In this document: piece by piece, positions 1 to 14,072 of the stretch
Numbering within the stretch: position 1 is the stretch's first letter
Layout of the letters: every line of letters starts with the position of its first letter
Virus record (IMG/VR): IMGVR_UViG_2645727905_000010
Location: 1 to 14,072 of that record
Reading direction: 5' to 3' (one strand)
From: a virus
Lineage: Duplodnaviria; Heunggongvirae; Uroviricota; Caudoviricetes
DNA length: 14,072 nt
The notes under the pieces: model-generated
The model's database searches: none
What the model was told of the DNA's origin: nothing
The model's input: the letters and a program-made list of their open reading frames with translations, nothing else
Translations under genes and position numbers: made by a program

Positions 1-30
1 ACACCCACTCTATTTAAATACCGTCTTTTT

Positions 31-80
31 GTCACTGTGTGTCACTGGTTGTCACTCTCCGTCACGGTATGTCACCACAA
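31..80. repeat. Five direct copies of GTCAC at exactly 10-bp spacing (starts 31, 41, 51, 61, 71), immediately 3-prime of the last minus-strand ORF
   Basis: Seen directly: tGTCACtgtg tGTCACtggt tGTCACtctc cGTCACggta tGTCACcaca. Helical phasing would put all copies on one DNA face. Confidence 0.8.
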
Positions 81-81
81 G

Positions 82-375
82 TTAACGTCGTAACCGCTCC
101 GGCTTCTTCCAGTGGTAAGTAATTTTTTCTTTCTCCTGGTACATCTCCACGCGGCGACGATATGACAACAACTCCAGAACTCTGGTGCGTATATTGCGTA
201 TATCCACGCCGTTAAGCTCGATACCGTCACGGCGCATCACCTCAGCCACCACACGCGCGTAATTTTCGGCTATCACGCTGTCCGGCTGCGTGGCCTCCTG
301 TTTGCCTGCTTCCTGGCTGATTCCGGTAACGCGACGGATTATTTTTAGTAGTTCGGTTTCGCTCATTCTCGTCAT
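82..375 (-). CDS. Hypothetical 97-aa protein, translationally coupled to the large terminase (ATGA overlap at 372-375)
   Basis: ORF with ATG at 375 overlapping the terL stop at 372-374. Basic C-terminus. No family recognised by eye. Confidence 0.55.
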   Translation of the reverse strand: MTRMSETELLKIIRRVTGISQEAGKQEATQPDSVIAENYARVVAEVMRRDGIELNGVDIRNIRTRVLELLSYRRRVEMYQEKEKITYHWKKPERLRR

Positions 376-2033
376 ACCCCATCAAACGCCGCAAGCCGCT
401 CTTTGTGGCTGTCGCTTATATCAAATGCAAATTTCTCATGTTCTGCCTGGAATGTGCCAAACGCCATCAGAGCCGCAACGCTCGGGTCTATCTTGTTGGA
501 TGATTTTTTCTTGTTCGGCTTGATATTGGCGTTCGCGTCACTCTGCATCACAACATTACTCATTGACCAGGCCAGCACCGGATCGCCACGATGCACAATC
601 ACCTTCCGGTTAACAAAAACTTCGAACGATTTCGCCGCCGGACTGAAACGAAGGTATGTTTGCGGGAACGGCTCCACCTCAAATCCTGCCCCCTGTAGCT
701 GCGTCCTCAGGTGCGTGGCGTTCCATGTATCGAAGCCCACCAGCCTGATATTGAAATTCTCTGCATCCGCCATGATGTCATCACGGATACGGTCATAATC
801 AATGCAGTCACCCGGTGTTGTGCGTATCCAGCCCGCCTTTACCCACTGGCGATAGATGGCGCGGTTTTTATTGGCGGGGTTCTGTAGCTGAAATTCAGGC
901 AGATAGTGACGGGAAACCAGCATAATCTTTTTACCGACCGGAAAGGCATAGCACACGCTGGAAATATCGCTGGTTGATGATAAGTCCAGCCCCGCGTAGC
1001 ACTCCTGCCCGTATAAATCCGCCTCCGCGAACGTTCCGGCGCACTCCGCCCATGCACCGTTACCCATCCACGGCGTAGCCCCCTGACACCAGATATTGAA
1101 TCGCTTGGTGAGCATTTCCACCCACTGCGACGGAATACCCCGCGCTTTCTGGATGGTTGAGGCCAGTTTTTCACGATCGACGGAAACATCGATATTGGGA
1201 TTCGCCTTTATCCACATCGCCGGATCGTCAACCTCGCTTTCATCATCCAGCTCGTAAATCAGCACGAACATGGATTCGTTCACCTCTTCACCATCCAGTA
1301 TCTGGCAGCAATAGTCATAGTGTTGTTTACAGGCTGAAACAACGTTGCTCCCCGATGTGGTGATGGCAAATAACAGCCCCTCCGGACGCGCCCCCATTCC
1401 CAGTTCAAGCGCGGAATAAACCCCGTTGTCAGGGTGCAGGTGATATTCATCCACAATGGCAAGACTCGGGTTTGTACCTTCAATGGTTGCCGCTTTTGCT
1501 GCCAGTGGCTTTAACAGGCTGTTGGTTTTCGGGTGTATCACCTTGTGTGCCTGAATATTTACCCGCTTTCGTAACGGTCGGGATAAAAGGCACATCTGAC
1601 GCGCATCATCAAACACGATCCGCGCCTGATCACGACTCACGGCGGCGGTGTAAATATCCTGCTGCCCGTTTTCCATAACCAGAAACCAGTTAGCCAGGAT
1701 AGCGGCGACCGTGGATTTGGCATTTTTTCGCGGCACTTCAATGAATGCGCTGGTGTATTTGCGCCGTCCGGTGGCCTTAACCTTAAAGCCCAGGATGCAC
1801 GCAAAGGCGAACTGCTGCCACGGCTCCAGCTCAATGGGGCTACCGCGCATTGCGCCTTTTACGTGCGGACACACCCTGGAAAAGGCAATAAACCGCTCCA
1901 CGACCTCCGGATCGAACGTGTAAAGGGGGTTTTCAAGGTCAGAAAAATACCGTTTAACGGCCTGTTTCAGTCGTTTACAGGCCGTAATTTTGCCGTTTTT
2001 TACGCCTTCTGCGTACTCATGCCAGGCGGTCAA
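372..2033 (-). CDS. terL: Terminase large subunit
   Basis: 553-aa translation has terminase-large character: N-terminal ATPase region and a C-terminal acidic nuclease region (IVDEYH, FDTWN). The first codon at 2033 is TTG, preceded by GAGGA 5 nt upstream. The first in-frame ATG is 61 codons in and would remove conserved N-terminal sequence. Overlaps terS 3-prime end by 17 nt. Confidence 0.92.
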   Translation of the reverse strand: MTAWHEYAEGVKNGKITACKRLKQAVKRYFSDLENPLYTFDPEVVERFIAFSRVCPHVKGAMRGSPIELEPWQQFAFACILGFKVKATGRRKYTSAFIEVPRKNAKSTVAAILANWFLVMENGQQDIYTAAVSRDQARIVFDDARQMCLLSRPLRKRVNIQAHKVIHPKTNSLLKPLAAKAATIEGTNPSLAIVDEYHLHPDNGVYSALELGMGARPEGLLFAITTSGSNVVSACKQHYDYCCQILDGEEVNESMFVLIYELDDESEVDDPAMWIKANPNIDVSVDREKLASTIQKARGIPSQWVEMLTKRFNIWCQGATPWMGNGAWAECAGTFAEADLYGQECYAGLDLSSTSDISSVCYAFPVGKKIMLVSRHYLPEFQLQNPANKNRAIYRQWVKAGWIRTTPGDCIDYDRIRDDIMADAENFNIRLVGFDTWNATHLRTQLQGAGFEVEPFPQTYLRFSPAAKSFEVFVNRKVIVHRGDPVLAWSMSNVVMQSDANANIKPNKKKSSNKIDPSVAALMAFGTFQAEHEKFAFDISDSHKERLAAFDGV

Positions 2034-2373
2034 GCTCGTCCTCTTCCTCTGTTTCCGGTGGATTTCTGCGGCGACTTACCGGGTCAAAACCCAGCAAAGA
2101 AGCCATTTTGATCATTATTCTTTCAGCGTCAGCCTTTGCGCTCAGGGCGGGGTTTCTGCTCTCGCTGCCCTGACTGTTAACAATGCTGAACCCGCGCGTG
2201 GCAAGGTCTTCGACGGCTTTGCGGTATATGGAGTAGTTAACGCAATACAGCTCCAGATTGCTCCAGTCGGCGGGGGTAAGGTCTTCCCGTCCGGAAAGCT
2301 GGCGCGATTTTTCCTTCCACTGCCTGACCGCGATTTCATCCAGGTAAGCGGGGGCTTTTGGTGGTCTTGCCAT
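2017..2373 (-). CDS. terS: Terminase small subunit (P27-like), about 118 aa
   Basis: Translation from MARPPKAPAYLDEIAVRQW resembles P27-family small terminases in size and sequence style. ATG at 2371-2373. The longer ORF to 2514 adds 47 residues with no recognisable similarity, so the start is uncertain. Confidence 0.72.
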   Translation of the reverse strand: MARPPKAPAYLDEIAVRQWKEKSRQLSGREDLTPADWSNLELYCVNYSIYRKAVEDLATRGFSIVNSQGSESRNPALSAKADAERIMIKMASLLGFDPVSRRRNPPETEEEDELDRLA

Positions 2374-2661
2374 GTTCTTTTTTCGCCCAATTATTTTCAA
2401 AAAAATTCCCGTGCACAAAAATTTGAGGAGGCGGTCGGTGTCCGGCAGGGACGGTTTCGTCCTGAAAACCACCCCCACCCCCTCTGACGGCCTCACCAGC
2501 GATTGCGAAAACATTCCATGACCTCGCGGTCACGGTCGGTTAATCGCTTCGCTGTGGTGCGTTCTGTGCGCCCTGTCCTGTTGGCTTTGTGCCCTGTCTC
2601 CTGTGTCTTCCATAAGTCACGCTGCCTTATCAGTCCACGTATCAGCCTGGTTTGCTCCTGT
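2374..2661. other. Candidate cos / packaging-initiation region between the HNH endonuclease and terS
   Basis: 288-bp gap with no convincing ORF. In HK97-like cos phages, as I recall, cos lies between the HNH gene and terS. Contains an imperfect inverted repeat (cagggacg gttt cgtcctg), GC-rich tracts and direct repeats gtgcgccctgtcctg / gtgccctgtctcctg. Confidence 0.3.
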
Positions 2662-3102
2662 TCAGTCATCATCGCCATACATCCAGTCGTTACGGTGTGC
2701 TGCCCGTTCTTCCTGCTCGCGATACATGCCCGCCTTACGGTTCGCTTTCGTGGCTGGATCTTCCCGTGTCGTCTTACGGTTGTGGCACGTCTGGCACAAT
2801 GCCTGGTGGTTCCACTCAGGCCAGAAGAGAACATCACCGCCGCCATTGATGGGGATGATGTGATCCACCACAAGAGCTGGCGTATAAATCCCCTTAGCCA
2901 GACAACGCACGCATAACGGGTTTTTGCTCAGGTACAGGGCGCGGTATTTGTCCCACTGTCGGGAATACCCGCGCGCGCGGCGGTGTCCCCGTCTGGCATC
3001 CTCTGCACGCCATACAGCCCGTCTGTGCTCTTCACACTTGCCGGACTTCACGCGCTTATTACAGCCCGGCTCAGTGCATCGCCTTAATGGTTGCCACGGC
3101 AT
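2662..3102 (-). CDS. HNH endonuclease (packaging-associated)
   Basis: 146-aa translation with N-terminal Cys pairs (CTEPGC, C..C) and the HNH motif region DHIIPINGGGD ... NHQALCQTCHNRKT. ATG at 3100-3102 overlaps the stop of the upstream connector gene by 1 nt. Confidence 0.9.
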   Translation of the reverse strand: MPWQPLRRCTEPGCNKRVKSGKCEEHRRAVWRAEDARRGHRRARGYSRQWDKYRALYLSKNPLCVRCLAKGIYTPALVVDHIIPINGGGDVLFWPEWNHQALCQTCHNRKTTREDPATKANRKAGMYREQEERAAHRNDWMYGDDD

Positions 3103-3404
3103 CAGTACACCCCCACATCACGATAAACCGACCAGAGCGCAGAAATAGCCATAGGCAGTTCAGACTGCTCCACTGGTGAAACTGCTTCCCTGTTCTCGTA
3201 CAGGAAAGCGATGTACATCAGGCAACCAACACGCATTGCCGGGGTAAATTCCAGCCCGTCTTCAAAACGTTTCCCGATATGCTTCTGGCAGGCTTCCAGC
3301 GCCGCATCGGTATACATTTTCAGAAGTTCGCCTTCACCGGATAAATCATCATCAAGTCGAAGATGTGCCCTGACTTCATCAGGTGTAATTCTGGCTTCAC
3401 TCAT
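3102..3404 (-). CDS. Head-tail connector / adaptor protein (gp6-like)
   Basis: Translation from MSEARITPDEVRAHLRLDDD...EACQKHIGKRFE matches the characteristic N-terminus of gp6-like head-tail connector proteins. ATG at 3404 with GGGAG upstream. Overlaps the portal 3-prime end by 8 nt. Confidence 0.7.
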   Translation of the reverse strand: MSEARITPDEVRAHLRLDDDLSGEGELLKMYTDAALEACQKHIGKRFEDGLEFTPAMRVGCLMYIAFLYENREAVSPVEQSELPMAISALWSVYRDVGVY

Positions 3405-4611
3405 CTTTTCTCCCTTTAATTTCCACAGTCTGTTTCCATGCCTGGCTGAACTCATCACCACCTTCACGCGGCGGCATACCCTCGCGTTCGCGAGCTTCGT
3501 TCTGATTCATGATCCCGCTCTTAATCCCTTTCTCATACGTGGCATAACGTTCGGTGGGTGTGGCGCGCAGTAAATCGGCTGAATCAAACTCAACCAGATA
3601 ACGGGTACCAGGTACGGGAGAAGTCACCAGCAAAGCGGCCTTGATTTGCTGTTCGAAGTTCGCCAGCCACGGGCGCATTGTCATGGTCAGAAATGCGCGG
3701 CTCGCCTCACTGAAATTGCTGTAGGTGCTGTTGCTGTATTCCTGAAGAAAAATCGGCGACACGTTGAACATCCTGGCGATGTCTTCAATGGAGAAGCGAC
3801 GGGAGGCCAGCCATTCCGCATCCTGGTTACTCATCCCCAGCTGCCTGTAATCCATGCCCCCTTCAAGGATTGGCGTTTTTCCGGCATTTTTCGCCCCCTT
3901 GTAGCGTTCCAGTGCGTCTAATGCCTGTTTACCTTTCACGCCGTCCAGCCATTCACCTGACGTGATAATCCCTGCCGCCATCATGCCATCTTTCATAATG
4001 CTGGCTCCGTGACGCTGTTGAGCAAGGCCAAGCCCCAGCGCCTCACGGCAAATCGTGACGGGGGAACGCCCCAGAAAGCCATTATCCGAGGCATAGCGGA
4101 GATGCAGAACTTCTTCCTGTAAATACGTGCGCACCGTTCCTGTACAGGGTTCGGTGATGGTATAGCGGTATTTGTGTGTGCCTGTGCGTTCCGGTACAAC
4201 ACACCCCGGCGCATAAGGATGAAGTGATTTTGGCTGCCCGTCCCGCCCCCACTCAATAACCGCATAGGCGTTACCGTTCAGCAGGCAGTGACGCATCATT
4301 GTGCGTTTAAACTGGTAAGGTGTCAGGCACGAATTAGGCTGCTCATTCAGCAGAATATCTACCGGGTGACTGTCCAGCCATTCCCGCGCCTCTCTGCCCT
4401 TGTCATTACGTACCAGATACAGGTAACACGGCATCGTGGCCACCGCCTCAGCGATGACAGAAACCGCGTTCATCACAGCAGGCAATGATTCAGCCGTCCC
4501 GGCAGAAACATATTCTCCGGATCCGGTATTTGGTACACCAGACAACGCCAGAAAATCATCAATGGACAGGTTACGCAGATCGCTTTTTTTACGACTAAAA
4601 GGCCACCACAT
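3397..4611 (-). CDS. Portal protein (HK97 family)
   Basis: About 400-aa translation with portal-like features and an acidic C-terminus. Start chosen at ATG 4611 (MWWPF...), directly after the protease stop. The ORF could extend to 4701. Confidence 0.88.
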   Translation of the reverse strand: MWWPFSRKKSDLRNLSIDDFLALSGVPNTGSGEYVSAGTAESLPAVMNAVSVIAEAVATMPCYLYLVRNDKGREAREWLDSHPVDILLNEQPNSCLTPYQFKRTMMRHCLLNGNAYAVIEWGRDGQPKSLHPYAPGCVVPERTGTHKYRYTITEPCTGTVRTYLQEEVLHLRYASDNGFLGRSPVTICREALGLGLAQQRHGASIMKDGMMAAGIITSGEWLDGVKGKQALDALERYKGAKNAGKTPILEGGMDYRQLGMSNQDAEWLASRRFSIEDIARMFNVSPIFLQEYSNSTYSNFSEASRAFLTMTMRPWLANFEQQIKAALLVTSPVPGTRYLVEFDSADLLRATPTERYATYEKGIKSGIMNQNEAREREGMPPREGGDEFSQAWKQTVEIKGRKDE

Positions 4612-4612
4612 A

Positions 4613-5173
4613 TCACAACCCCGCCAGTTCAGCCCAGCGATGACGATTATTTCCTGCCGGGCGTAATTCAGGGTACTGTGCAAACAACGAACGGTGGGCA
4701 ATCTCCACGCCGGATTCGGGATAAGCAGGCATCGATGTTATCGTGATTTCACGGAGTTCTGCGGCGGTTACAGTACGCAGATACGGTTTTTGCGCGATAT
4801 TCCACTCCTCGCATAATGCGCGAAAGCCAAAGCTCATTCCTGTAATATCGCCACGTTCCACCAGCGTAAGCACATCTTTTCCAAGCTGGGTATTTGGCGG
4901 TGTCAGTTCAAAACGTAGCCCGGTGTTATCCTCAGTCAGTACCAGTGAGCCGGATTTGGTACGCCCCAGCAGTCGGGTATAGTCATGCTCATACAGACAG
5001 CGCACATCATTACCCGTCGCCAGATAGTCAGCAAAAGCCCCCGGCGTGAACTGTTCGCGAAACTCGTCCCAGATAATTTCTGAAAGGCTGTTCCAGCGAA
5101 CGGCATAACCCACCAGTTTTTTATCGCTGGCGGTCAGTTCAGATGTACGGATTTCAAAATCGGTGTTTTTCAT
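4613..5173 (-). CDS. Prohead maturation protease (HK97 family)
   Basis: Translation from MKNTDFEIR contains the HK97-protease-like core (LYEHD...LGR...L.LTED..GLRFE...G.DVLTLVERGDITGMSFGF). ATG at 5173 with GGAG upstream. Confidence 0.88.
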   Translation of the reverse strand: MKNTDFEIRTSELTASDKKLVGYAVRWNSLSEIIWDEFREQFTPGAFADYLATGNDVRCLYEHDYTRLLGRTKSGSLVLTEDNTGLRFELTPPNTQLGKDVLTLVERGDITGMSFGFRALCEEWNIAQKPYLRTVTAAELREITITSMPAYPESGVEIAHRSLFAQYPELRPAGNNRHRWAELAGL

Positions 5174-5191
5174 CGGTGTACTCCATAAAGC

Positions 5192-5214
5192 TGAAAAAGG
5201 AGGCCGAAGCCCCC
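5192..5214 (-). terminator. Putative intrinsic terminator/attenuator between capsid and protease genes (minus strand)
   Basis: Minus-strand RNA would read GGGGGC-UUCG-GCCUCC (6-bp stem including one G-U pair, UUCG tetraloop) followed by UUUUUCAGCUUUAU. Sits 8 nt downstream of the capsid stop. Confidence 0.5.
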
Positions 5215-5222
5215 TTTGCTCA

Positions 5223-6368
5223 TTACTTGCCAGCCTGAATTTCCAGAATCTTGATGGCGTTCGAATCCACCACACCACCGCCCAGATATTTCTGGGTATA
5301 GATGTTAATGAATCCAGGCTCGCTGAAATCCGGACGGGTACGCGTACCGGTTTTATGGTCAACGATGAAATAACCGCGCTTAAAGTCACCGACTGCAATC
5401 ACACCGTCCGGCATAAATTCCAGATATTCAACCGGAAGCCCCAGCAGAGAATCAGGATCACCAGCCTGTAAACGATCGCGCCAGATGTAATCACCAGTGG
5501 CATTTTTCAGTTTTTGTGCGGAGGCGGCTGTATTTGAGTTCATCACCCATACAGCTTTTTTGCGGTACTTATTGCGCAGCGTAAATTTCAGGTCAATCAG
5601 CATATCGGCGCTGAGACTGCCAGTCACTTTTTTCGTCTGGAGCGTACCGAAAGGACGGGTTTTGTCATTATCCGTAGTGCGCGGGAAAGTCAGGAAACCT
5701 TTGGCTTTTTTCTCGCCATCACCGGAAACCAGATCCGTTTCTTCGGTATCAACGAAAGTGTCGCCAATTTCAGAAGATAACCAGCCCATAATATCGACTT
5801 CGGAAAAATCGATAATTTCCTGAGTGGTTTTCGGGTAAGCGTAGATCGGATACAGGCGGATACTGACTTCATTCAGTTTTGGGGTTGCCGTCTGGTTACG
5901 TGCCGCACCTTCTTCGCCGTGTCCCACGACCGCGCCCCCGGCAGAAACCAGTTGCTTAAATTCATTACTGTGAATGGTTTTAACAGTACAGATTTTACGC
6001 ATCACCGACTCATCAGAAAGCTGACGCATAATTTCTCTGTTCAGTTCCGGGATAACCGTATAACCACCATCAGCCGGAACACTGCCGGACAGGTTGCGGG
6101 TTTCCCCGGTCAGAATGTAAGAGCGTAGCTCATTTTTGGTGATTTTATCTTCGACGGGAACACCAGGCTGGTTACGTTCTTCATCAGCCACAGACTCGAG
6201 GCGGGAAATTTCTGTGTCGAGGGAATCGGCTTTTGCACGCAGTTCATCAAACTGTTTGCCTTCGTCATCGTTCAGGCTGCGGTTTTCACTGTCGGCTTTT
6301 TCCAGCAGGGATCGCATCTGGTTTTTCAGGACGGTTTTTTGCTGGCGGAGTTCGATTAATTTCTTCAT
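5223..6368 (-). CDS. Major capsid protein (HK97 fold) with N-terminal scaffold-like coiled-coil domain
   Basis: 381-aa translation with charged, heptad-like N-terminal region of about 100 aa and a C-terminal region typical of HK97-family capsid proteins. ATG at 6368. Confidence 0.9.
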   Translation of the reverse strand: MKKLIELRQQKTVLKNQMRSLLEKADSENRSLNDDEGKQFDELRAKADSLDTEISRLESVADEERNQPGVPVEDKITKNELRSYILTGETRNLSGSVPADGGYTVIPELNREIMRQLSDESVMRKICTVKTIHSNEFKQLVSAGGAVVGHGEEGAARNQTATPKLNEVSIRLYPIYAYPKTTQEIIDFSEVDIMGWLSSEIGDTFVDTEETDLVSGDGEKKAKGFLTFPRTTDNDKTRPFGTLQTKKVTGSLSADMLIDLKFTLRNKYRKKAVWVMNSNTAASAQKLKNATGDYIWRDRLQAGDPDSLLGLPVEYLEFMPDGVIAVGDFKRGYFIVDHKTGTRTRPDFSEPGFINIYTQKYLGGGVVDSNAIKILEIQAGK

Positions 6369-6438
6369 GAAGGTTTTCTCGCATTGGTTAAGATTCAGGA
6401 CGTGAAACCAACACGGGGGGAGCGCCGCCCGACACTCT

Positions 6439-6513
6439 CGGCATCTCGCAGATCAACCCGGCATCGCGCAGGGGGTCAGGCGGCATTGTGGCGGCTCACG
6501 TCTGAGTGCCACA
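6439..6513. promoter_or_regulatory. Candidate regulatory sites upstream of the capsid operon: direct repeats CGGCATC(N)CGCAG at 6439 and 6459, partial third at 6481, plus dyad TGTGGC-N15-GCCACA (6487-6513)
   Basis: Seen directly in sequence. Located 70-145 bp upstream of the capsid ATG (6368) on the transcribed side. Confidence 0.3.
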
Positions 6514-6562
6514 CGCCAACATATACATAAAAATCAGTATGTAAACATCAACCAGAATCACC

Positions 6563-6590
6563 GAACAACCTGGAACAACCACGAACAAAT
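6563..6590. repeat. Three 10-bp-phased copies of GAACAAC(C) (starts 6563, 6573, 6583); reverse complement GTTGTTC matches the repeat unit of the int-alpA array
   Basis: ccGAACAACC tgGAACAACC acGAACAAat read directly. Lies between the replication-operon terminator and the capsid gene. Confidence 0.6.
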
Positions 6591-6611
6591 AATTTACAAA
6601 ACCTGAAAAAA

Positions 6612-6632
6612 GGCCCGGAAAAAATCCGGGCC
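6612..6632 (-). terminator. Strong intrinsic terminator ending the replication/ssb/FinO operon (bidirectional hairpin)
   Basis: GGCCCGG-aaaaaat-CCGGGCC perfect 7-bp stem flanked by A-run on plus (T-run for minus-strand RNA) and T-rich tract on the other side. Follows the stop of ORF 6642..6890 within 10 nt. Confidence 0.75.
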
Positions 6633-6641
6633 TTTATCGCT

Positions 6642-6890
6642 TTATTGTTTCACTGGCTCCCGCATTCTGCGTCTTATTTTCCACAAATATTCGATCATCG
6701 CTTCCACCTGCTCACGGTTGGTTGCGAAAATTTCCCCGGTCAGTGAGCTACGCAGAAAATCATGATGATCCACAAAAAATAACGCATCGGAAGAAAGCAA
6801 CCGACGATATTTTTTTGCTGTCGTGGTTTCCAGATCATCAAAACCATGAAGCTTTTTATGTTGCTGAACTTCTTCAAATGTCACTGGCAT
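6642..6890 (-). CDS. Hypothetical 82-aa protein
   Basis: ORF with ATG at 6890 overlapping the FinO-like gene stop by 10 nt (operon context). No family recognised. Confidence 0.5.
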   Translation of the reverse strand: MPVTFEEVQQHKKLHGFDDLETTTAKKYRRLLSSDALFFVDHHDFLRSSLTGEIFATNREQVEAMIEYLWKIRRRMREPVKQ

Positions 6891-7411
6891 GTATCCCCCT
6901 TTGCTGCCCGGCGCTGGCGCTTGTGCTTCTCATTCAGCACCATCAGCCGTGTTTCTGCCTCCTGCTGTTCCTGTGGTGTCACTTCCCCACATGGCTGGCC
7001 TTTCAGATCGTAACGTGCGCCACCAGCTATCAGGGCGCGGTAATAGCGCGGAGACTGCGCATAGGATGCCAGCGTCGCACGTAATACCCCCGGCCCGAAT
7101 GCCAGCCCCCTGACGGCGATATCCTGCATCAGGTCGTCGAATATCCCCACCTTAAGCGGCTTCGGTGCTTTATGGCTGAATAAGTCAGGCCACATCTCAG
7201 TGAGGCGGTTAACGCGTCGGCGGTTTTTGCGCTGCCTTTTGGTCATATGCTGCCACGGTGTCGCCCCTGTGGGCTTCTGCTGTGCGTTCTGATTGCCGGG
7301 TATCACTTTATGCGCCGATGTGGTTTTATCCTGCTCTTGCGCCGCCTGCGTCGTTTTCTGCGGCGTGCCGTAAATGCCTTTCGGCTTCCGGTTAATGGTC
7401 AGCGTTGTCAT
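6881..7411 (-). CDS. ProQ/FinO-domain RNA-binding protein
   Basis: Core region WPDLFSHKAPKPLKVGIFDDLMQDIAVRGLAFGPGVLRATLASYAQSPRYYRALIAGGARYDLKGQPCGEVTPQEQQEAE resembles the ProQ/FinO fold signature (CF..PLKIGI.DL...S...LR.AL..Y..S.RY......G..R.DL.G...G.V). Basic Lys/Arg tail. Confidence 0.8.
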   Translation of the reverse strand: MTTLTINRKPKGIYGTPQKTTQAAQEQDKTTSAHKVIPGNQNAQQKPTGATPWQHMTKRQRKNRRRVNRLTEMWPDLFSHKAPKPLKVGIFDDLMQDIAVRGLAFGPGVLRATLASYAQSPRYYRALIAGGARYDLKGQPCGEVTPQEQQEAETRLMVLNEKHKRQRRAAKGDTCQ

Positions 7412-7447
7412 GCCTTCCCCTGTAATTACTCTGTTCGCTGTTGTGAA

Positions 7448-7873
7448 TTAAAACGGTATGTTATCCCCGTACGGGTCATCGTGCTGGCTTGTCTGTTGTT
7501 TTGCCCTGTTCAGTGCGTCAGTGGCCTGGCCCTGTTGACCTTTTTTGCCGCCCGGTCGCGCCGTTCGCGCACTGATTACGCTGTCTGCAATAACCTGCCA
7601 GCCCTGCCGCGTTTCCCCGTTCTGGCCTGTCCACTGGCTCACCTGCATGTTACCCGCCACGCTCACCAGTTCGCCTTTGTGGTGTTTTGCCAGTGCGTCG
7701 GCCTGTCTGCCAAACGCCAGGACAGATAACCACATCGTCGCCGTTCCGTCATCTGCCTGGCTGCACGGCAGGGGAACCGCCATACTCGCCATCGCCATTT
7801 GTGTCCCTTTGCTGGTGGTCTTTAACTGCGGGTCAGCCACCAGCCGCCCGTAAGCCGCTATCTGTGCTGTCAT
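7448..7873 (-). CDS. ssb: Single-stranded DNA-binding protein
   Basis: 141-aa translation with OB-fold-like core aligning by eye to E. coli SSB (IAAYGRLVADPQL / WLSVLAFGRQADALAKH / QGWQVIADSV), Gly/Gln-rich linker and C-terminal acidic tip ...DDPYGDNIPF (SSB tip motif D-I-P-F). Confidence 0.85.
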   Translation of the reverse strand: MTAQIAAYGRLVADPQLKTTSKGTQMAMASMAVPLPCSQADDGTATMWLSVLAFGRQADALAKHHKGELVSVAGNMQVSQWTGQNGETRQGWQVIADSVISARTARPGGKKGQQGQATDALNRAKQQTSQHDDPYGDNIPF

Positions 7874-7936
7874 GCTGTCTGTTCTCCGGTTTTAACGTTG
7901 ATTGTTACGCTTGTTTACACCCTTACGGTGAAATTC

Positions 7937-8060
7937 TGCGGGTTATAATCGCACTTTTGCGGGTTATAACTGCCGTTTTGCGGGTTACGTGCGGGTTATT
8001 GATTTCCTTTTTATTCATACAGTTAATGCACTTACACACAGGATAACCCGCATAACCCGC
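7937..8060. repeat. Putative origin of replication: four direct iterons TGCGGGTTA(T/C) at 7937, 7958, 7979, 7990, an AT-rich spacer, then two inverted copies ATAACCCGC at 8043 and 8052
   Basis: Seen directly. Located immediately 3-prime of the replication gene (stop at 8084), the usual ori position in PICI/P4-type elements. Confidence 0.75.
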
Positions 8061-8083
8061 AACTTTTTACATCACACAGGGGG

Positions 8084-10204
8084 TTAATCTTCTGCCTCAG
8101 GCTGGAACATCAGCACGTAAAAAACATGCTGCTTCCCCCCAATTTTGCTGAGCGCCTTTTTCTTGTAACGGCGGTCGTTCCCCTTTTCCAGCATCCCCGC
8201 CGCATCAAGCGCTCTTGCAAAATGCGACGGGTTAAATCCCTGTGCGATCTCACCTTCAAACACATGCGGGAACGTGTAAAAACGGAACTCGTCATCTTCG
8301 TTTCTGATACTCCCCTTTCTGTATCCGGCAAGCTCTTTAATCGGTAAATCACGCTCGTCGGTGTTGGGCCACGGAAGGTATCTGCTGAATCCGAACGACG
8401 CTAAAAAAGCCTCTGCCTGTTCAACCATCTGTTTAAACTCCCTGTTACCCGTGCCGAATTCCTTCACCCAGGCATAAAAATTATGCTGTATGGCATCGCG
8501 GCATTCCTGCTCATCCCAGCCAGTAACATGACCGGAAAGCACAAGCGCGGCCTCCAGTATGGCAAAACGCTCACCCACGCGGTGGACCTGCTCGCCGTAG
8601 CTCTCCGGTATCAGGTTGCGCCACCGTTCACGGCATGCCCTTACCGTGTCCTTTGCTTCCTGCTGGTGGTTTGCCAGCCATTTAACCCATTCACGACCCG
8701 CCGCCCCGTGATTTTCTGTCCAGGCATCCTTTAACGCGTCTGCGTGTGCCTTTCCGGTGCTGTATTCGTGAAATTGTGTGGCTTTTTCCATTGGCACGTT
8801 AAGCAGGCGGACAAGCTGCCCCGCCTTGACTTTTATCCCTTCCGTTTTGAGGAATGTTTCAACGTCCATTTCTCCGGTACTGATTGCCACCGTGCGCCAG
8901 TGTTTGATCTCCCTGTTGCCGCCGTCCTTTGCCCCCTGTAATTTCCCGGAACCGTTAAACAGCGTATAGGCTGACGTGGACACCTCCCGCGCGTTTCCGG
9001 CCTGACCTATTTCATCCAGGGGTAACAGCCCGTCATTATGTGCTTCGGCCTCGTTGGCGATACCTAACGCCGTGCCGTACCAGGTCAGCCGTTGTGCGTC
9101 CGGCTCTCCCCATAAACTGGATGCGATGTTCTGTGTGGTGGTTTTCCCTGCCGATGACTGTTCGAAAAGATGTACCCCGAAGCCGTCAGCCCCCACCAGC
9201 CCGATTAATGGTGCGGATAACGATACCGCCACACCCAGCATCATGGACGGATTACCACCAGCCAGCCGCGCCACGGTATCGCGCCAACCCTCCGCCGTTC
9301 CTGCCACGGAATAGCCATTAACAGCAGCCGTTTTTCCGGTAAACAGGACTGGCTTTTCGCAATCACCAATGACCGAACCGTCCGGCATGATGTACGCGCC
9401 AAAATGCCAGCCCGTTGTTGTGCTTAACTGCCATTCCTCATGGCTTCCGCTTAACTGCATCCAGTCAGCCAGGATAGCCCTGTATTTGCCGTTAGTTGTT
9501 ACGTTCAGTCCGTGGTCTTTCAGCAGCCGCCAGCCGTCACGGTCGCCAATGCCACCGCACGGAACCGCCATTGTTATGACTTCATGGTTTGCTAATTTTT
9601 TCCAGCGCATCACGCGGTAATGCTCTTTACCGATTGTCCCCGTTCCCAGTAGTTCAAGCGGGGAACATAACCACGTCTCAGGCCGGATAATTTCGCCTGA
9701 CTGCTTATCCACTTTGGGCGTTACCCAGAAAACACCATCGGCGCGGCTTTCAACGCGTGGCTTTAATTCATCATCACCCTGGCTTTCTGTGATTTTTTTC
9801 TTTAAGGGCAACACCAGACTTTCCCCGCGCTCGTATTCGTCTTTCAGCCGGGCAAGCTGTGGTGTCCAGTCCTCCAGTAAATCGCCGTTCTCGTCACAAA
9901 AACAGGCTTCTTTAACACCAGCCACTGCCAGCAGGGTTTCAATCTGTAGCGCCAGTTTGTCATCCAGTTTTCCGGCACGTCTGACGATGGCGCGTGACCG
10001 ACCCTCATCCACAATACGCAGGTTTTCCAGATTACCCAGGTCACGCCGTCCGAGATAAACAGGTGGTATTTTGTCGCCGCGCTTTCTGGCTTCTCCGCCC
10101 TGCATGTAATGCTCTGCGTGGCTGTATGCGTCATCCCCCGCAAAAATCACTGCATCCTCGCCTTTATCTTTCGGTAACAGTTTTACGTTCGGTGCCAGTT
10201 TCAT
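8084..10204 (-). CDS. Replication initiator: primase/helicase-like protein with P-loop NTPase domain
   Basis: 706-aa ORF. Central P-loop-like motif FEQSSAGKTTTQ and size/architecture typical of satellite and genomic-island primase-helicase (pri-rep) proteins. ATG at 10204 overlaps the upstream gene stop (ATGA). Confidence 0.8.
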   Translation of the reverse strand: MKLAPNVKLLPKDKGEDAVIFAGDDAYSHAEHYMQGGEARKRGDKIPPVYLGRRDLGNLENLRIVDEGRSRAIVRRAGKLDDKLALQIETLLAVAGVKEACFCDENGDLLEDWTPQLARLKDEYERGESLVLPLKKKITESQGDDELKPRVESRADGVFWVTPKVDKQSGEIIRPETWLCSPLELLGTGTIGKEHYRVMRWKKLANHEVITMAVPCGGIGDRDGWRLLKDHGLNVTTNGKYRAILADWMQLSGSHEEWQLSTTTGWHFGAYIMPDGSVIGDCEKPVLFTGKTAAVNGYSVAGTAEGWRDTVARLAGGNPSMMLGVAVSLSAPLIGLVGADGFGVHLFEQSSAGKTTTQNIASSLWGEPDAQRLTWYGTALGIANEAEAHNDGLLPLDEIGQAGNAREVSTSAYTLFNGSGKLQGAKDGGNREIKHWRTVAISTGEMDVETFLKTEGIKVKAGQLVRLLNVPMEKATQFHEYSTGKAHADALKDAWTENHGAAGREWVKWLANHQQEAKDTVRACRERWRNLIPESYGEQVHRVGERFAILEAALVLSGHVTGWDEQECRDAIQHNFYAWVKEFGTGNREFKQMVEQAEAFLASFGFSRYLPWPNTDERDLPIKELAGYRKGSIRNEDDEFRFYTFPHVFEGEIAQGFNPSHFARALDAAGMLEKGNDRRYKKKALSKIGGKQHVFYVLMFQPEAED

Positions 10205-10515
10205 TTTGCCTTTCCCCGTTCACGAATAATTTCACGTACTGCCTTAATGCGTTCCATTCCTGTAACGCGCATGATTCTGTCAATGTCGCTTAAGTTCGCT
10301 GGTGGTGCTTTGCTTACCAGGGTGAACTCCCTTTCAAAGCGCATATGCGACGACACGCAGGGATGCGCATAACCTTCGCGGATATAGGTCACGCGAAAAT
10401 CATCGACGGTTTTAATCGTTATCGTGCTGCCGTATTTATCCCGGAAAATATCGCCGGGGCGGATTTCAGGCCGAGCGGGGCCGCTGGCAGTAAAGCCAGA
10501 ATTTTTCTTTTTCAT
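10201..10515 (-). CDS. Hypothetical 104-aa protein
   Basis: ORF with ATG at 10515 and GGAG upstream. Stop overlaps the replication gene start, consistent with translational coupling. No family recognised. Confidence 0.55.
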   Translation of the reverse strand: MKKKNSGFTASGPARPEIRPGDIFRDKYGSTITIKTVDDFRVTYIREGYAHPCVSSHMRFEREFTLVSKAPPANLSDIDRIMRVTGMERIKAVREIIRERGKAK

Positions 10516-10520
10516 GTTTT

Positions 10521-10739
10521 TTACTCCAGAGGCAGCTTTTTAGCGGCGAGCTCAATATCAGATGTCAGAGAAACCTGTGTATTTGCCAGGTCTAACAACA
10601 AAGAAATAAGAATTTCTTCTCTGCTATCGGATTTATCGGTGCTAAGGCTGTTCATCCACATATTGACGACTTCCCTGATTTTTTTCGCAGAGTGCAGGGC
10701 TTCAAATGCCAGGTCTTCAATATCATGTTTATTTCGCAT
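10521..10739 (-). CDS. Hypothetical 72-aa protein, predicted helical
   Basis: Start chosen at ATG 10739 (MRNKHDIEDL...) with G-rich SD-like tract upstream. The longer form to 10805 would overlap the upstream gene by 77 nt. Confidence 0.45.
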   Translation of the reverse strand: MRNKHDIEDLAFEALHSAKKIREVVNMWMNSLSTDKSDSREEILISLLLDLANTQVSLTSDIELAAKKLPLE

Positions 10740-10941
10740 AATCGCCCCCGCGTAGCTGGTCTGCACTAACACCCGATTTAGTGAGCATTTCAGAAAATCC
10801 CGCAAGAGTGCTGATAAATTCGTTTTCCATTAAACGGCACTGACATTTAACCCGGCCTTTTTCCAGATACACCAGTACGCGCCCCGTATAATCTGACGGC
10901 ACATTCAGCACTACAGGTAAGTGCGATTCATGATTATGCAT
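10729..10941 (-). CDS. Hypothetical 70-aa protein, paralog of the adjacent upstream gene
   Basis: Shares pattern TG..LV....KGRV.C...L with ORF 10934..11143. ATG at 10941 overlaps that ORF's stop by 8 nt. Confidence 0.55.
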   Translation of the reverse strand: MHNHESHLPVVLNVPSDYTGRVLVYLEKGRVKCQCRLMENEFISTLAGFSEMLTKSGVSADQLRGGDYAK

Positions 10942-11143
10942 GTCTCACCCCCTGAATATTCGCATTAATCATTCCGGCACGTTCTGCGAGTTCCTGTAAT
11001 GATTCCCTTGTTGCGACAATGGCTTCATCTGGCAGGTGGTAATTACACACCACGCGACCTTTATCCACATTGACCAGTAGCTGCCCGGTAAATTTCTCAC
11101 GAAACTGAACGCGGTTAAGGTCGGTAAGTGACAGGTTAATCAT
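10934..11143 (-). CDS. Hypothetical 69-aa protein, paralog of 10729..10941
   Basis: ATG at 11143 preceded by AGGGGGA. Conserved block FTGQLLVNVDKGRVVCNYHL aligns to YTGRVLVYLEKGRVKCQCRL of the neighbour. Confidence 0.55.
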   Translation of the reverse strand: MINLSLTDLNRVQFREKFTGQLLVNVDKGRVVCNYHLPDEAIVATRESLQELAERAGMINANIQGVRHA

Positions 11144-11339
11144 GGTGTTCCCCCTGGCGAATACGGGCAGCGAATACCATCACGCAGCCATCAGGAGATT
11201 GCTGACGCGCTTCCTGTTCGCTGGTGGCCTCAATGGTAATCACGCGCGGTTGTGCCGTGCTCAGGGCGATAAAACGCCAGATGTATTTATTCAGGTTGTA
11301 CGAGTCCCGCCCTTGCGGGTGTCTGGTATAATTTCTCAT
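11136..11339 (-). CDS. Hypothetical 67-aa protein, first gene of the leftward operon
   Basis: ATG at 11339 with GAGG 5 nt upstream. This is the plausible 3-prime part of a 370-aa track ORF whose remainder has non-protein-like composition and crosses the plus-strand genes. Confidence 0.45.
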   Translation of the reverse strand: MRNYTRHPQGRDSYNLNKYIWRFIALSTAQPRVITIEATSEQEARQQSPDGCVMVFAARIRQGEHHD

Positions 11340-11415
11340 AGCTGCCTCGATACGCTTTCTATCGTTGGTGGTTAGACGCCCTGCATGTGTGCCACCACTG
11401 CGGGGCGTTGTTGTT

Positions 11416-11511
11416 TGGTGCATCGCACCATTCGGTTTTAACCTATCAATAAGTGAATCGCACTTCAAGCCTTTCTCTGAAATTTTTTTTGTGTATACTG
11501 AATCGCACCAA
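11416..11511. promoter_or_regulatory. Divergent promoter/operator region: perfect palindrome TGGTGC-ATC-GCACCA (11416-11430) plus two further ATCGCAC-containing sites (11456-11467, 11500-11512), the last abutting a TATACT -10-like element (11494-11499)
   Basis: Seen directly. Lies between the divergently oriented 67-aa gene (start 11339) and the RHH gene (start 11530). Confidence 0.5.
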
Positions 11512-11529
11512 CTTAGAGAGGATTCAGTA

Positions 11530-11709
11530 ATGGCAACAGGTTCAACAAATAATAAGTCGCAACAGTTAAATGCCAGATTCCCGCATGATGTTGTTGCAGA
11601 CTTAGAAAAAAATTTAGATGAAGGTGAAAGCAAGGCGCAATTTATAGTTACTGCCGTTAAAGGTGAGATCAAACGCCGCCAGCGCCGCAAGGCCAAAGAG
11701 CAGGAGTAA
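11530..11709 (+). CDS. Ribbon-helix-helix (Arc/CopG-like) DNA-binding protein, 59 aa
   Basis: ATG at 11530 with AGAGGA 7 nt upstream. Translation has RHH-like layout: short N-terminal strand (LNARFPHDVV) followed by two helices (ADLEKNL...; ESKAQFIVTAVKGEIKRRQ) and a basic tail. Confidence 0.6.
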   Translation: MATGSTNNKSQQLNARFPHDVVADLEKNLDEGESKAQFIVTAVKGEIKRRQRRKAKEQE

Positions 11710-11766
11710 CCATCACCAGCGCCGTGGTGTAAGGTATTACGGCGCATTGCTATGCAGGACAACACA

Positions 11767-11940
11767 ATGACCGATAAAGAATTGACCAAAACATTATCAC
11801 CGACACGGAAAAGACGGCGCAGAAAGATAGAGCATGAATCAGAAAGATTCGCGCCATGTGCTTTTGCCCTTGAGCAATTCCTTAAAGAGTACAGGGAAAA
11901 GCGCTCATTGCAGGTATGGCAACGAACTGAACCAGACTGA
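11767..11940 (+). CDS. Hypothetical 57-aa protein with Arg/Lys-rich N-terminal segment
   Basis: ATG at 11767 with AGGA 7 nt upstream; ORF track alternative ATG at 11752 lacks an SD. Followed by an intrinsic terminator. Confidence 0.4.
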   Translation: MTDKELTKTLSPTRKRRRRKIEHESERFAPCAFALEQFLKEYREKRSLQVWQRTEPD

Positions 11941-12005
11941 TTGCATTGCCCACCAGCCGCAAATGTGGCATTGTTGGTGATGCTTTTGTTTTCCCTTGTT
12001 CCCAC

Positions 12006-12042
12006 TGGCGACCCTTTTGCGGTCGCCTTTGTTTTGCTTGTT
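12006..12042 (+). terminator. Intrinsic terminator for the plus-strand two-gene cassette
   Basis: tGGCGACC-cttttgc-GGTCGCCa stem-loop (7-8 bp stem) followed by TTTGTTTTGCTTGTT. Confidence 0.7.
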
Positions 12043-12300
12043 ATCCGGCAATAGTGGCGCTTCACCACACGGTTGATATAATTCCCCTGCACTGATCCAT
12101 TTTTTTCGCAGCAGGTTAATTGTTCAGAAAGACGGTTCCTTATCGGGGCCGCTTTTTTTATGCCTGAAAATACCCGATAACATGGCTTTTTAGTTTCACC
12201 AGGACGAACGAAGCCCCGCCCCTGTTCGGGCGTATATCCAGTATTCATGGTTAGATCTCTGTGTTAGTGGATGGGTGGCGGCGGTGCGCCGCCAGCCTGA

Positions 12301-12504
12301 TTAGTGAACTGCCTCGCGGCTGTCCTTCCATGCCAGAACTTCGGATAAAGACCAGCCAACGGAACGACCGCCGAGTTTACGCCGTGATGGGAATTGTCCA
12401 GTCTTCTCCAGGCGATACCGACATGAGCGGCTCAGGCCTGTAAGTTGCTGACATTCTTTTTCACGTATAAAGCGATCAGCGCTTAACACTATTGCCTCCG
12501 TCAT
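12301..12504 (-). CDS. alpA: AlpA-family transcriptional regulator (phage/island excision-activation regulator)
   Basis: 67-aa translation ...REKECQQLTGLSRSCRYRLEKTGQFPSRRKLGGRSVGWSLSEVLAWK matches the AlpA pattern (...TGLSRSTIYRL...G.FP....LG.RSVGW...E...W). Confidence 0.85.
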   Translation of the reverse strand: MTEAIVLSADRFIREKECQQLTGLSRSCRYRLEKTGQFPSRRKLGGRSVGWSLSEVLAWKDSREAVH

Positions 12505-12695
12505 TTCTCAAAGAGTCATTTGGTGTCTTATTGTGTCGTATTGTTCCCGCTAGAGTGATGAATGGCAAATATTGGTGACGGTCGTTTTACAGATATGGGG
12601 TAATTAGAATAAAAATACTTTTAATTCATTGTGATGTAGTAGCGTAAAATTTTGCTTTTACGCCTTTTTTACATATTTTTAAGAGTGATTCGCCA

Positions 12696-12711
12696 GTGTA
12701 TAAAAAAACAG
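12696..12711. promoter_or_regulatory. LexA-box-like element GTGTATAAAAAAACAG (one mismatch to CTGT-N8-ACAG) in the int-alpA intergenic region
   Basis: Seen directly. Differs at 2 positions from the E. coli umuDC-type box CTGTATATAAAAACAG as I recall it. The mismatch is in the normally conserved CTG. Confidence 0.3.
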
Positions 12712-12770
12712 TATACATATAAAAATCAAATGGTTATGAATGAGTTTGATTTTTAATCCGCTTGTCCCAT

Positions 12771-12820
12771 TTTGTTCCTTGTTGTTCGTCGTTGTGTCTC
12801 GTTGTTCCACGTTGTGTCCG
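12771..12820. repeat. Five 10-bp-phased repeats (T/C)GTTGT(T/G)(T/C)C between the integrase stop and alpA
   Basis: tttgttcctt gttgttcgtc gttgtgtctc gttgttccac gttgtgtccg read directly at starts 12771, 12781, 12791, 12801, 12811. Confidence 0.75.
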
Positions 12821-12842
12821 TTCTGAAAAATCACGAAAAAAA

Positions 12843-14072
12843 TTATATTTCTCTGGCTATTGGCAGTGTGGTTACGTTTTCGTGAGTACCCGCCAGTATC
12901 TCTAACCGCTCTGTCCACATGTCCAGCGCATTACGTTTCGCATCGAGATAACGGGAGTGGTTATAGACTCGCTGCATCCCTGGCATCTGGTGAGCGGTGA
13001 GTTGTTCGACAATATGCGGATCCACGCCTAAATCGTTCAGCATCGTGGTAAACGTGCGCCGTATATCGTGTAGTGACCAGTGCGGATGGTTTAATTTTTT
13101 GTGCGTGAATCTGCCGTATTGCGACACGCTGGCTTCCTGTTTCAGTTCCCCGAGTAATAGTCCTGTGTGTCGGTTCTGCTCCACCAGCCGTGTGACGAAC
13201 GGTAAAATGCTTTCCGGTATTGGCCTGAATATGGCGACCTTCGTTTTGCTGTGCTCCTTCGGTACTGTCCAGAGCATTTCCTTAAAATCCCACTCCCTGA
13301 TCTCCGACAGCCTCAGTTCTCCGGTTCGGCAACCAAACACAATCAGGAGGCGGATTAGTGCGCTGTAGTAGGGCGGGAATATTTTTTTATCCAGCGCCTG
13401 TAATAATTCGCCCAGTTCTTTGTTACTAAGCACGCGTTCGCTTATGCCTGGTTTTTTACCAACGTCCACCACGTTGAGATCATCCAGAGCGTTACTGACG
13501 ACATAGCGGCGTTTACGACAGAATTTAAGCGCCTGTTTGCACGCCTGCATCATGTGACCAGACGTTACGGGGGATTTTTTGCGTATCCGGTCAAAACAGG
13601 CCAGCCAGTGACGTAATTCGCATTTATCCAGTGGCATGTTACCGATGTGCTGTATGACGTGATTATTCAGGCGACTTTTCAGGCATACATAATCGACACG
13701 GTTTTCCTTTACGTGCGTTTCCAGCCAGTAACTGATCGCATCGCCAACCGTTACGGGTTTTAACGCTTCCTGCACAGTGTAGTTCAGTTCATGACGTGGG
13801 TTTTTCCCTTCTGCCAGCCATGCACGACACTTTGCGGCTTTTTCCCTGGCTGCTTTAAGGCTCAGATCGGGATAGTTTCCCAGCTTCAGGCGTTCCGGTG
13901 TGGTATCCCTTCCCGTTCCAGCCCTGTAGGTGAAGTACCAGGTCAATTTACCTGATGTTAAATATTTCACGCTCAGATTACCGCCATCGCTATAGAACGT
14001 ATTTTTCTCCGCTGGCTTACCATAAAGTTTTCTTAACAATGTATCGCTCAGTTTGTTAAGCGCTCTGCTCAC
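12843..14072 (-). CDS. int: Tyrosine integrase (P4/CP4-57-like), truncated by the window edge at its 5-prime end
   Basis: C-terminal catalytic region with HDIRRTF (H-x-x-R), LTAHQ and RVYNHSRY (Tyr nucleophile). N-terminal region ...YSDGGNLSVKYL...GKLTWYFTYR... typical of P4-family integrases. The ORF is open to the window end and the first translated codon is GTG, so the true start lies beyond 14072. Confidence 0.93.
   Translation of the reverse strand: MSRALNKLSDTLLRKLYGKPAEKNTFYSDGGNLSVKYLTSGKLTWYFTYRAGTGRDTTPERLKLGNYPDLSLKAAREKAAKCRAWLAEGKNPRHELNYTVQEALKPVTVGDAISYWLETHVKENRVDYVCLKSRLNNHVIQHIGNMPLDKCELRHWLACFDRIRKKSPVTSGHMMQACKQALKFCRKRRYVVSNALDDLNVVDVGKKPGISERVLSNKELGELLQALDKKIFPPYYSALIRLLIVFGCRTGELRLSEIREWDFKEMLWTVPKEHSKTKVAIFRPIPESILPFVTRLVEQNRHTGLLLGELKQEASVSQYGRFTHKKLNHPHWSLHDIRRTFTTMLNDLGVDPHIVEQLTAHQMPGMQRVYNHSRYLDAKRNALDMWTERLEILAGTHENVTTLPIAREI

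Follow-up and report, generated by a model that had tools for sequence, protein, structure and literature searches.

We analysed a stretch of 14,072 nucleotides (hereafter the window; positions 1 to 14,072 of the IMG/VR virus record IMGVR_UViG_2645727905_000010), which is a capsid-forming phage-inducible chromosomal island (cf-PICI) of Escherichia coli with all of its long open reading frames (ORFs) on the minus strand. Positions 2391-2482, read on this gene strand, are with high probability the HK97-type cohesive-end (cos) site of the island. The site lies between the genes for an HNH endonuclease and for the small terminase subunit (TerS), where a sequence-only reading of the same DNA had expected cos on the grounds of an HNH-gap-terS arrangement with a 288-bp noncoding gap. 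Both genes and the 288-bp distance from the HNH stop codon to the terS start stand as described, but the gap is not noncoding throughout: it holds a 61-codon gene, the small ORF at 2493-2678, which leaves 2374-2492 (119 bp) as true intergenic DNA. The placement of cos in the gap is supported by the DNA ends of relatives, by a conserved site and by likeness to HK97, and is now restricted to these terS-proximal 119 bp.

Conserved and rigidly spaced blocks upstream of terS

Within the 119 bp, we observe a noncoding site of about 92 bp (2391-2482) that is conserved and rigid in its spacing. The blocks were compared in an alignment of six E. coli relatives (82-94% identical) and one Klebsiella relative, and entropy by position was calculated from 161 distinct sequences chosen without reference to the CTCAAATTTTT block. 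Positions relative to the site are counted on the gene strand from the predicted top-strand cut, with +1 as the base that opens the packaged DNA on its left side.

The most upstream block is a G-tract motif, G-GGGGTGGGGGTGGTTTTCAGGAC, at 2459-2482 (-55..-32). Its 23-nt portion GGGGTGGGGGNNGTTTTCAGGAC (2459-2481) is invariant in the E. coli/Klebsiella alignment and present as a single copy in the window, and none of 200 shuffles matches it even at three mismatches; the GC-rich tract that had been noticed in the gap by eye is in this respect a real and unique feature. The exact 23-nt motif is found in at least 120 IMG/VR contigs, 70 metagenome contigs and seven species-representative Enterobacterales genomes (Shigella, Klebsiella, Kluyvera, Pluralibacter, Erwinia and Pectobacterium), and loci picked on other patterns retain GGGGTGGGGG..GTTTT(C/A/T)A(G/A)GAC. 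By analogy, this motif is possibly an upstream cos element of the cosQ kind.

The motif is followed by a spacer of 21 nt (2438-2458, -31..-11) that is variable in sequence and fixed in length. Its mean entropy of 0.80 bits is close to that of terS third codon positions (0.81 bits), and its final base is the predicted position of the bottom-strand nick. The next 10 nt (2428-2437, -10..-1), 5'-CGACCGCCTC-3' on the gene strand, form the predicted cohesive end, equivalent to cosN and presumably left as a 3' overhang; this segment is C-rich and occurs in 18 variants, with a mean entropy of 0.46 bits. It borders the block CTCAAATTTTT at 2417-2427 (+1..+11), the predicted left end of the packaged DNA, which is almost invariant (mean entropy, 0.04 bits) and the most conserved part of the region. 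Of 169 loci, 167 have 31 nt between the 23-nt motif and this block. The remainder of the site, at 2391-2416, comprises GTGCACGGGAA, a T7 run (2399-2405, +23..+29) and GAAAATAA, and is the predicted TerS binding region, equivalent to cosB. Here GCACGG occupies +14..+19 and the T7 run is conserved at +23..+29; mean entropy is 0.53 bits over +12..+22 and 0.20 bits over +23..+37, the part with the T7 run and GAAAATAA. For comparison, the three codon positions of terS have entropies of 0.20, 0.21 and 0.81 bits. The low entropy of the blocks, set beside a spacer that behaves as if neutral, indicates that these noncoding blocks are constrained like coding positions and are kept at a fixed spacing.

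The same layout is seen in the Pasteurella cf-PICI Pmp8, whose TerL (large terminase subunit) and TerS are 70% and 61% identical to the proteins of the window. There, the order is G-tract-TTTT, 21 nt, 10 C-rich nt, ATCAAATTTTTACGCAAGG, T-run and GAAAATAA, with ATCAAATTTTT in place of the +1..+11 block and the spacing unchanged.

Two other features of the gap, to which the sequence-only reading had drawn attention, do not hold up as parts of cos. The 15-bp direct repeats were recovered as 17-nt copies of 76% identity (2565-2581 and 2588-2604) inside the small ORF; the second copy is lost in 85%-identical relatives, and the repeats, not being a conserved DNA feature, were rejected as cos elements. 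The imperfect hairpin corresponds to a terminator-like hairpin at 2516-2535, likewise inside the small ORF and not conserved as DNA.

Additional observations were made on the sequence of the site itself. A palindrome centred on GTGCAC (2403-2424) is confined to this subtype. The G-tract (2472-2484) is complementary to the C-rich cohesive-end segment (2428-2440), and the two pair in the predicted fold, with no clear covariation between subtypes; the single-strand fold of the region as a whole was no better than shuffles (z, -1.27). The invariant block at 2416-2426 (+2..+12, gene strand) includes TCAAATTTTTG, which fits the consensus core of integration host factor (IHF), TCAANNNNTTR, and the Pasteurella element (locus L277, ~836-848) has a perfect WATCAANNNNTTR (AATCAAATTTTTA) in the same position. 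By analogy with lambda, a DNA-bending protein of the host might be involved at cos.

Ends of capsid-form DNA in relatives

We identified three independent Klebsiella cf-PICI assemblies that carry the same module, with terL ~82-83% identical at the protein level. All three break in the interval between the small ORF and terS, and have terS-terL at the front and HNH together with the small ORF at the back. Apart from the additional small ORF at the end, this virion-form order is the one that had been predicted for packaged DNA from the gene arrangement in the window, that is, terS-terL at the start and HNH at the end.

The first of these assemblies is the IMG/VR metagenome contig 3300022664_000095 (15,518 nt), which displays the virion order terS (61), terL, int, primase, capsid, portal, HNH and small ORF (ending at 15457). 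Its first bases are CTCAAATTTTT, and its last bases are ...GGTTTTCAGGAC followed by 21 nt, so that it ends 21 nt past the motif. Integrated relatives read ...GGCAC|CACCCGCCCC|CTCAAATTTTT..., exactly 10 nt more than lies between the two ends of this contig. A loss of exactly 10 nt is what would be expected if 10-nt 3' overhangs had been trimmed in library end repair. Filled-in 5' overhangs, on the other hand, would leave the 10 nt in two copies, one at each end; virion-order contigs of relatives were found to have no terminal repeat (8-127 nt), a lack of duplication that is unlike 5' overhangs.

The second assembly, vB_KppS-Ant (LR881103.1, locus L002; 16,548 nt), begins 22 nt ahead of terS, and its last bases are precisely ...GGTTTTCAGGAC. 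Set against the chromosome of ATCC 13883 (= DSM 30104), it matches at 100% identity on either flank and lacks 69 nt in between, a gap that opens 21 nt before the predicted ends and closes 38 nt after them. It is the cf-PICI KpCIDSM30104 recovered from capsids. The paper on vB_KppS-Ant reports that DNA of a lysate grown on K. pneumoniae DSM 30104 was assembled with SPAdes, describes no re-ordering and notes >99% identity to the host chromosome, and KpCIDSM30104 is reported to fill capsids at very high frequency with DNA that re-anneals via cohesive ends (He et al. 2025 and Alqurainy et al. 2022, preprints). The record itself is filed as an "Escherichia phage" and was published as a filamentous single-stranded DNA phage of a novel genus, though it derives from K. 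pneumoniae DSM 30104.

The third is contained in PQ569648.1 (Klebsiella phage P12620-1, 106.5 kb; loci L003 and L172), of which the final 15.9 kb (90,64x-106,503) are a complete cf-PICI in virion order. This segment begins at the terS start, extends to the last small-ORF codons and is joined to unrelated phage sequence. Phage and satellite DNA that had been purified together seem to have been assembled into one chimeric record, whose cf-PICI genes are mainly unannotated or labelled "hypothetical."

One E. coli-type isolate contig (L069) ends 22 nt past the motif, 1 nt from the predicted nick, an end to which we give little weight given that draft-assembly breaks have other causes. Scans of a second Klebsiella subtype and of metagenome contigs found no additional contig ending at the site, and a further candidate, L264, was rejected because its boundary is that of a storage chunk and not a contig end. 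In a Shigella flexneri copy (SFBU1023, CP182556.1; locus L173, ~3076-3130), the G-tract is kept, and a deletion between two CCCCGCC repeats takes out the remaining cos and the terS start; this looks like a decayed cf-PICI that has lost packaging.

The virion-order contigs of relatives thus have fixed ends without terminal repeat, and not the circularly permuted ends of pac-type packaging that the sequence-only reading had named as the outcome to set against cos. Carried over to the window by the fixed spacing, the ends of the relatives predict a cohesive end at 2428-2437, a left end at 2427 and a right duplex end at 2438.

Packaging genes and anchoring to the HK97 cos

The HNH endonuclease gene (2662-3102, minus strand) encodes a 146-amino-acid (aa) HK97 gp74-like protein (Pfam HNH, E 9e-10; phrog_144, E 7e-45) with 36% identity to gp74 itself (E 6e-17) and similarity to the HNH endonuclease of PDB entry 5h0m (E 3e-15). 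The terL gene (372-2033, minus strand) encodes a 553-aa large subunit of the HK97 gp2 type, with Pfam TerL_ATPase and TerL_nuclease domains and 28% identity to HK97 gp2 over 506 aa (E 1e-48). Between cos and terL lies terS (2017-2373, minus strand; 118 aa), a member of the Terminase_4/P27 family (PF05119, E 2e-23) whose ATG is at +55 from the predicted cut. RefSeq has the same start at 2373, and the codon-position entropies given above agree on frame and start; on these grounds and on the location of the virion end, the longer ORF at 2017-2514 was rejected as terS in favor of the ATG at 2373.

An HK97-like packaging arrangement had been surmised from gene order. It is now supported by homology of HNH and TerL to gp74 and gp2, and by a layout that matches the HK97 cos at the predicted cut. 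In the HK97 literature, the cut lies between the last and first bases of the HK97 record, which finishes with ...GGGCAGGGGGGGGG followed by 42 nt and opens with GTTTGAATTTAACGCTAACCCGATTTTTTT...; its terS is at +50. The comparison of the gap with an HK97 cos, which the sequence-only reading had proposed, was run with both sequences anchored at the cut: 53 of 130 positions are identical (41%), against 32.6 +/- 4.9 in shuffled sequence, and offset 0 is best. Neither the G-tract nor the T-run is displaced by more than 1 nt from its HK97 counterpart (-55..-42 in the island and -56..-43 in HK97 for the former, +23..+29 and +24..+30 for the latter). HK97 TerS has its minimal site at +15..+29, in which the A-tract at +24..+29 is essential, and gp74 HNH stimulates cleavage in vitro (HK97 literature). 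This anchoring lends independent support to the cut position and to a putative TerS site at ~2391-2416, the likeness being one of architecture and not of sequence.

Alternative readings of the site

A first alternative accepts cos in this intergenic DNA but not nicks at 2427/2428 and 2437/2438: the 10-nt gap would be an accident of assembly or trimming, and the overhang would differ in length, position or polarity. We regard this as quite unlikely. In its favor, both ends are available at nucleotide resolution from one contig only, the 21-60 nt lost per end in vB_KppS-Ant and PQ569648 show that assemblies erode ends, and the overhang of HK97, a 10-nt 3' extension according to a 2024 PNAS paper and to a legend in PMC9410871, is given in the discussion of the latter as a 12-nt 3' one (with lambda as 10-nt 5'), so that PMC9410871 states both 10 and 12 nt. 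However, the start of 3300022664_000095 coincides with base 1 of the region's most conserved block, the length missing from it equals the length of the HK97 overhang, the HK97 landmarks fit best at offset 0, and L069, an unrelated isolate contig, ends no more than 1 nt from the same point.

The assignment of 2391-2482 as cos also has several points against it. Mapped ends come from Klebsiella relatives and none from this element or its E. coli-type relatives, among which a scan for contigs starting at the predicted left end found none. The nucleotide placement is that of a single metagenome contig of uncertain sample type and library method, while vB_KppS-Ant and PQ569648 only bracket the site, within 69 nt and ~120 nt, respectively, and the 3' polarity is deduced from the 10 missing nt. 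As TerS has no detectable sequence relation to HK97 gp1, transfer of the HK97 binding site is an analogy, and the shuffle result against HK97 is driven largely by two homopolymer-rich tracts. Finally, the T-rich blocks that are conserved may have a further role in expressing terS. The stronger form of this last point, that the intergenic blocks are mainly terS-terL expression signals (a promoter, an anti-termination or a translational element) and that packaging starts elsewhere or is headful (pac), can draw on blocks that are A/T-rich and lie 20-55 nt upstream of the terS ATG and on end data that come from relatives and not from the window, yet we consider it most improbable, given that a scan of the gene strand found no sigma-70-like promoter and an Rfam search of the region no match, that virion-form assemblies of relatives have unique ends here without permutation or terminal redundancy, that cohesive-end re-annealing is reported for KpCIDSM30104, that the TerL/HNH pair is of the cos type, and that a promoter does not account for a G-tract held upstream of the cut at a rigid distance of 31 nt.

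Proposed mechanism and discrimination against helper DNA

With an HK97-type cos at 2391-2482, packaging can be envisaged as follows. The induced island would replicate into concatemers, as described in the literature. The island TerS (P27/Terminase_4) would bind GCACGG...T7...GAAAATAA (+12..+37, 2391-2416), just inside the left end, and TerL together with the island HNH protein would nick 10 nt apart, at 2428|2427 on the gene strand and at 2438|2437 on the other strand, positions suggested by the contig ends. These enzyme roles are modelled on HK97 and on the prototype cf-PICI EcCIEDL933, in which mutation of hnh, terS or terL abolishes transfer. The nicks would leave 10-nt 3' cohesive ends (5'-CGACCGCCTC-3'), and the island-made small capsid would be filled starting from terS-terL, with HNH and the small ORF entering at the end, a direction shown by the gene order of virion-form contigs. 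The next cos would be cut at the end of packaging, where the G-tract 32-55 nt upstream (2459-2482) would probably come into use as a second recognition element, perhaps acting like cosQ of lambda.

As both the site and TerS are unlike those of HK97-like helpers, we propose that only island DNA would be cut and packaged. That the island's own terminase discriminates against helper DNA, as the sequence-only reading had anticipated, is plausible. Among 50,697 phage records (blastn), DNA of the site occurs in cf-PICI-derived records only and in no true phage, the TerS family and its site differ from those of HK97, and mutually exclusive packaging was demonstrated experimentally for EcCIEDL933 (Alqurainy et al. 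2022 / He et al. 2025, preprints). The nearest true-phage proteins are 37% identical for TerL and 40% for TerS; with no close true-phage module, no mapped phage cos is nearer than that of HK97 for comparison.

A conserved small gene beside the probable cos

The small ORF (2493-2678, minus strand) encodes a basic protein of 61 aa, is annotated in RefSeq and matches phrog_3173 over its full length (E 1e-28). It overlaps the end of the HNH gene by 17 nt and is intact in 158 of 166 related loci, which yield 83 distinct protein sequences, 50-61 aa long in most relatives, with the shared C terminus ERDRE(L/V)(M/R)ECFRNR. Its stop codon is 10 nt upstream of the G-tract in the window and 11 or 14 nt before the 23-nt motif in 150 of the 158 relatives. 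In the phage collection, the phrog_3173 protein is found in cf-PICI-derived records only, and the small ORF is absent from Pasteurella Pmp8.

In EcCIEDL933, mutation of "hypothetical gene 1792" severely reduces transfer (Alqurainy et al. 2022 / He et al. 2025, preprints). The small ORF may be this gene. We further put forward, as a speculation with a small chance of being right, that the phrog_3173 protein is a cos-specific accessory factor which reads the adjacent G-tract and aids exclusivity versus HK97-like helpers, in which case specificity would not be due to TerS alone. At the other end of the module, directly after terL, we observe a conserved ORF of 97 aa (82-375, minus strand; phrog_1561, E 9e-50), which closes the packaging operon and is a second candidate for the "hypothetical" gene of the packaging module.

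Element and gene context

The same island, at 99.9% identity, is found in a RefSeq E. coli chromosome between allC and allE. The gene order of this twin is integrase, regulators, primase-family protein, SSB and ProQ/FinO-family protein, followed by major capsid, HK97-family prohead protease, portal and head-tail connector, and then by HNH endonuclease, a hypothetical protein, P27-family small terminase, large terminase and a final hypothetical protein; its RefSeq gene list has no tail or lysis genes. The portal was identified by Pfam (PF04860, E 1e-90), and capsid and prohead protease are named by RefSeq only. This gene set and order are those that define proteobacterial cf-PICIs, with EcCIEDL933 as prototype: 10-18 kb in size, with integrase, regulation, primase-replication and capsid-protease-portal-connectors-HNH-TerS-TerL modules and without tail or lysis genes (Alqurainy et al. 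2022 / He et al. 2025, preprints). EcCIEDL933 and KpCIDSM30104 are induced by helper phages, make their own small capsids and borrow tails from the helper (Alqurainy et al. 2022; He et al. 2025, preprints).

Homologues of the HNH-terS region were found in 515 of 5,426 complete E. coli genomes, in every case on the chromosome. Elsewhere in the window, G+C falls sharply at ~12450-12900, to 0.33 versus ~0.52 in the rest, just upstream of the integrase gene; presumably, this stretch is the regulatory region between int and divergent regulator genes.

Significance and comparison with known systems

Cf-PICIs, their dependence on hnh-terS-terL, their cohesive ends and the textbook HNH-cos-terS layout of HK97 are already known. 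The position of cos in a cf-PICI is given in no accessible paper, and the EcCIEDL933 and KpCIDSM30104 preprints assume a cos without locating it. What is added here is a prediction of cos at the nucleotide level, an ordinary HK97-type site in a known satellite family; it holds no conceptual surprise and leaves the understanding of cos packaging and of cf-PICIs unchanged. These elements cross enterobacterial species in self-made capsids, and cos is the one cis element that decides what the capsid contains. With a ~92-bp prediction in defined blocks, cos-plasmid packaging tests, biochemistry of TerS, HNH and TerL, and satellite-based DNA delivery become designable. The site also helps to spot decayed, immobile copies, such as the Shigella copy without it, and GGGGTGGGGGNNGTTTTCAGGAC is usable as a finder for this cf-PICI lineage in genomes and viromes.

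Compared with lambda, the predicted site shares the cosQ-cosN-cosB plan, with one element lying upstream, then the site of nicking and, downstream and facing the first packaged genes, the site bound by the small terminase. Lambda differs in its 12-nt 5' overhangs, in a gpNu1/gpA terminase of other families and in the absence of HNH; in contrast, the large subunit of the island has the Pfam domains TerL_ATPase and TerL_nuclease and not Terminase_GpA, and contig ends of relatives lack a terminal duplication.

HK97 is closer in several respects. Both systems have the order HNH-cos-terS-terL, with HNH and TerL proteins 36% and 28% identical, the mapped (HK97) or predicted (island) cut lies ~50-55 nt upstream of the terS ATG, and both have portal, prohead protease and capsid in the same module. 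The predicted cohesive end of the island resembles that of HK97 in being rich in C and in having GACCGCC close to the cut, and a 10-nt overhang, established for HK97, is predicted for the island as well. The small subunit is different: TerS of the island belongs to Terminase_4/P27, whereas HK97 gp1 has no Pfam match, BLASTP found no similarity between the two, and a search of PDB sequences found no match for TerS. The sequence of the TerS site differs as well, the critical C:G at HK97 +21 being unmatched in the island, which furthermore has an extra conserved small gene between HNH and cos and is a satellite of 14-16 kb as opposed to a 40-kb phage.

The closest likeness is to EcCIEDL933 and KpCIDSM30104, which belong to the same element family and have the same module order, capsid-protease-portal-connectors-hnh-terS-terL. 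In EcCIEDL933, hnh, terS and terL are each needed for transfer (Alqurainy et al. 2022 / He et al. 2025, preprints). Elements of the O157 type are 85% identical across the region and contain the site, and the chromosomal copy of KpCIDSM30104, for which cohesive ends are reported, displays the same site layout. The window differs from these known cf-PICIs in its allele and in its integrase site, which lies between allC and allE.

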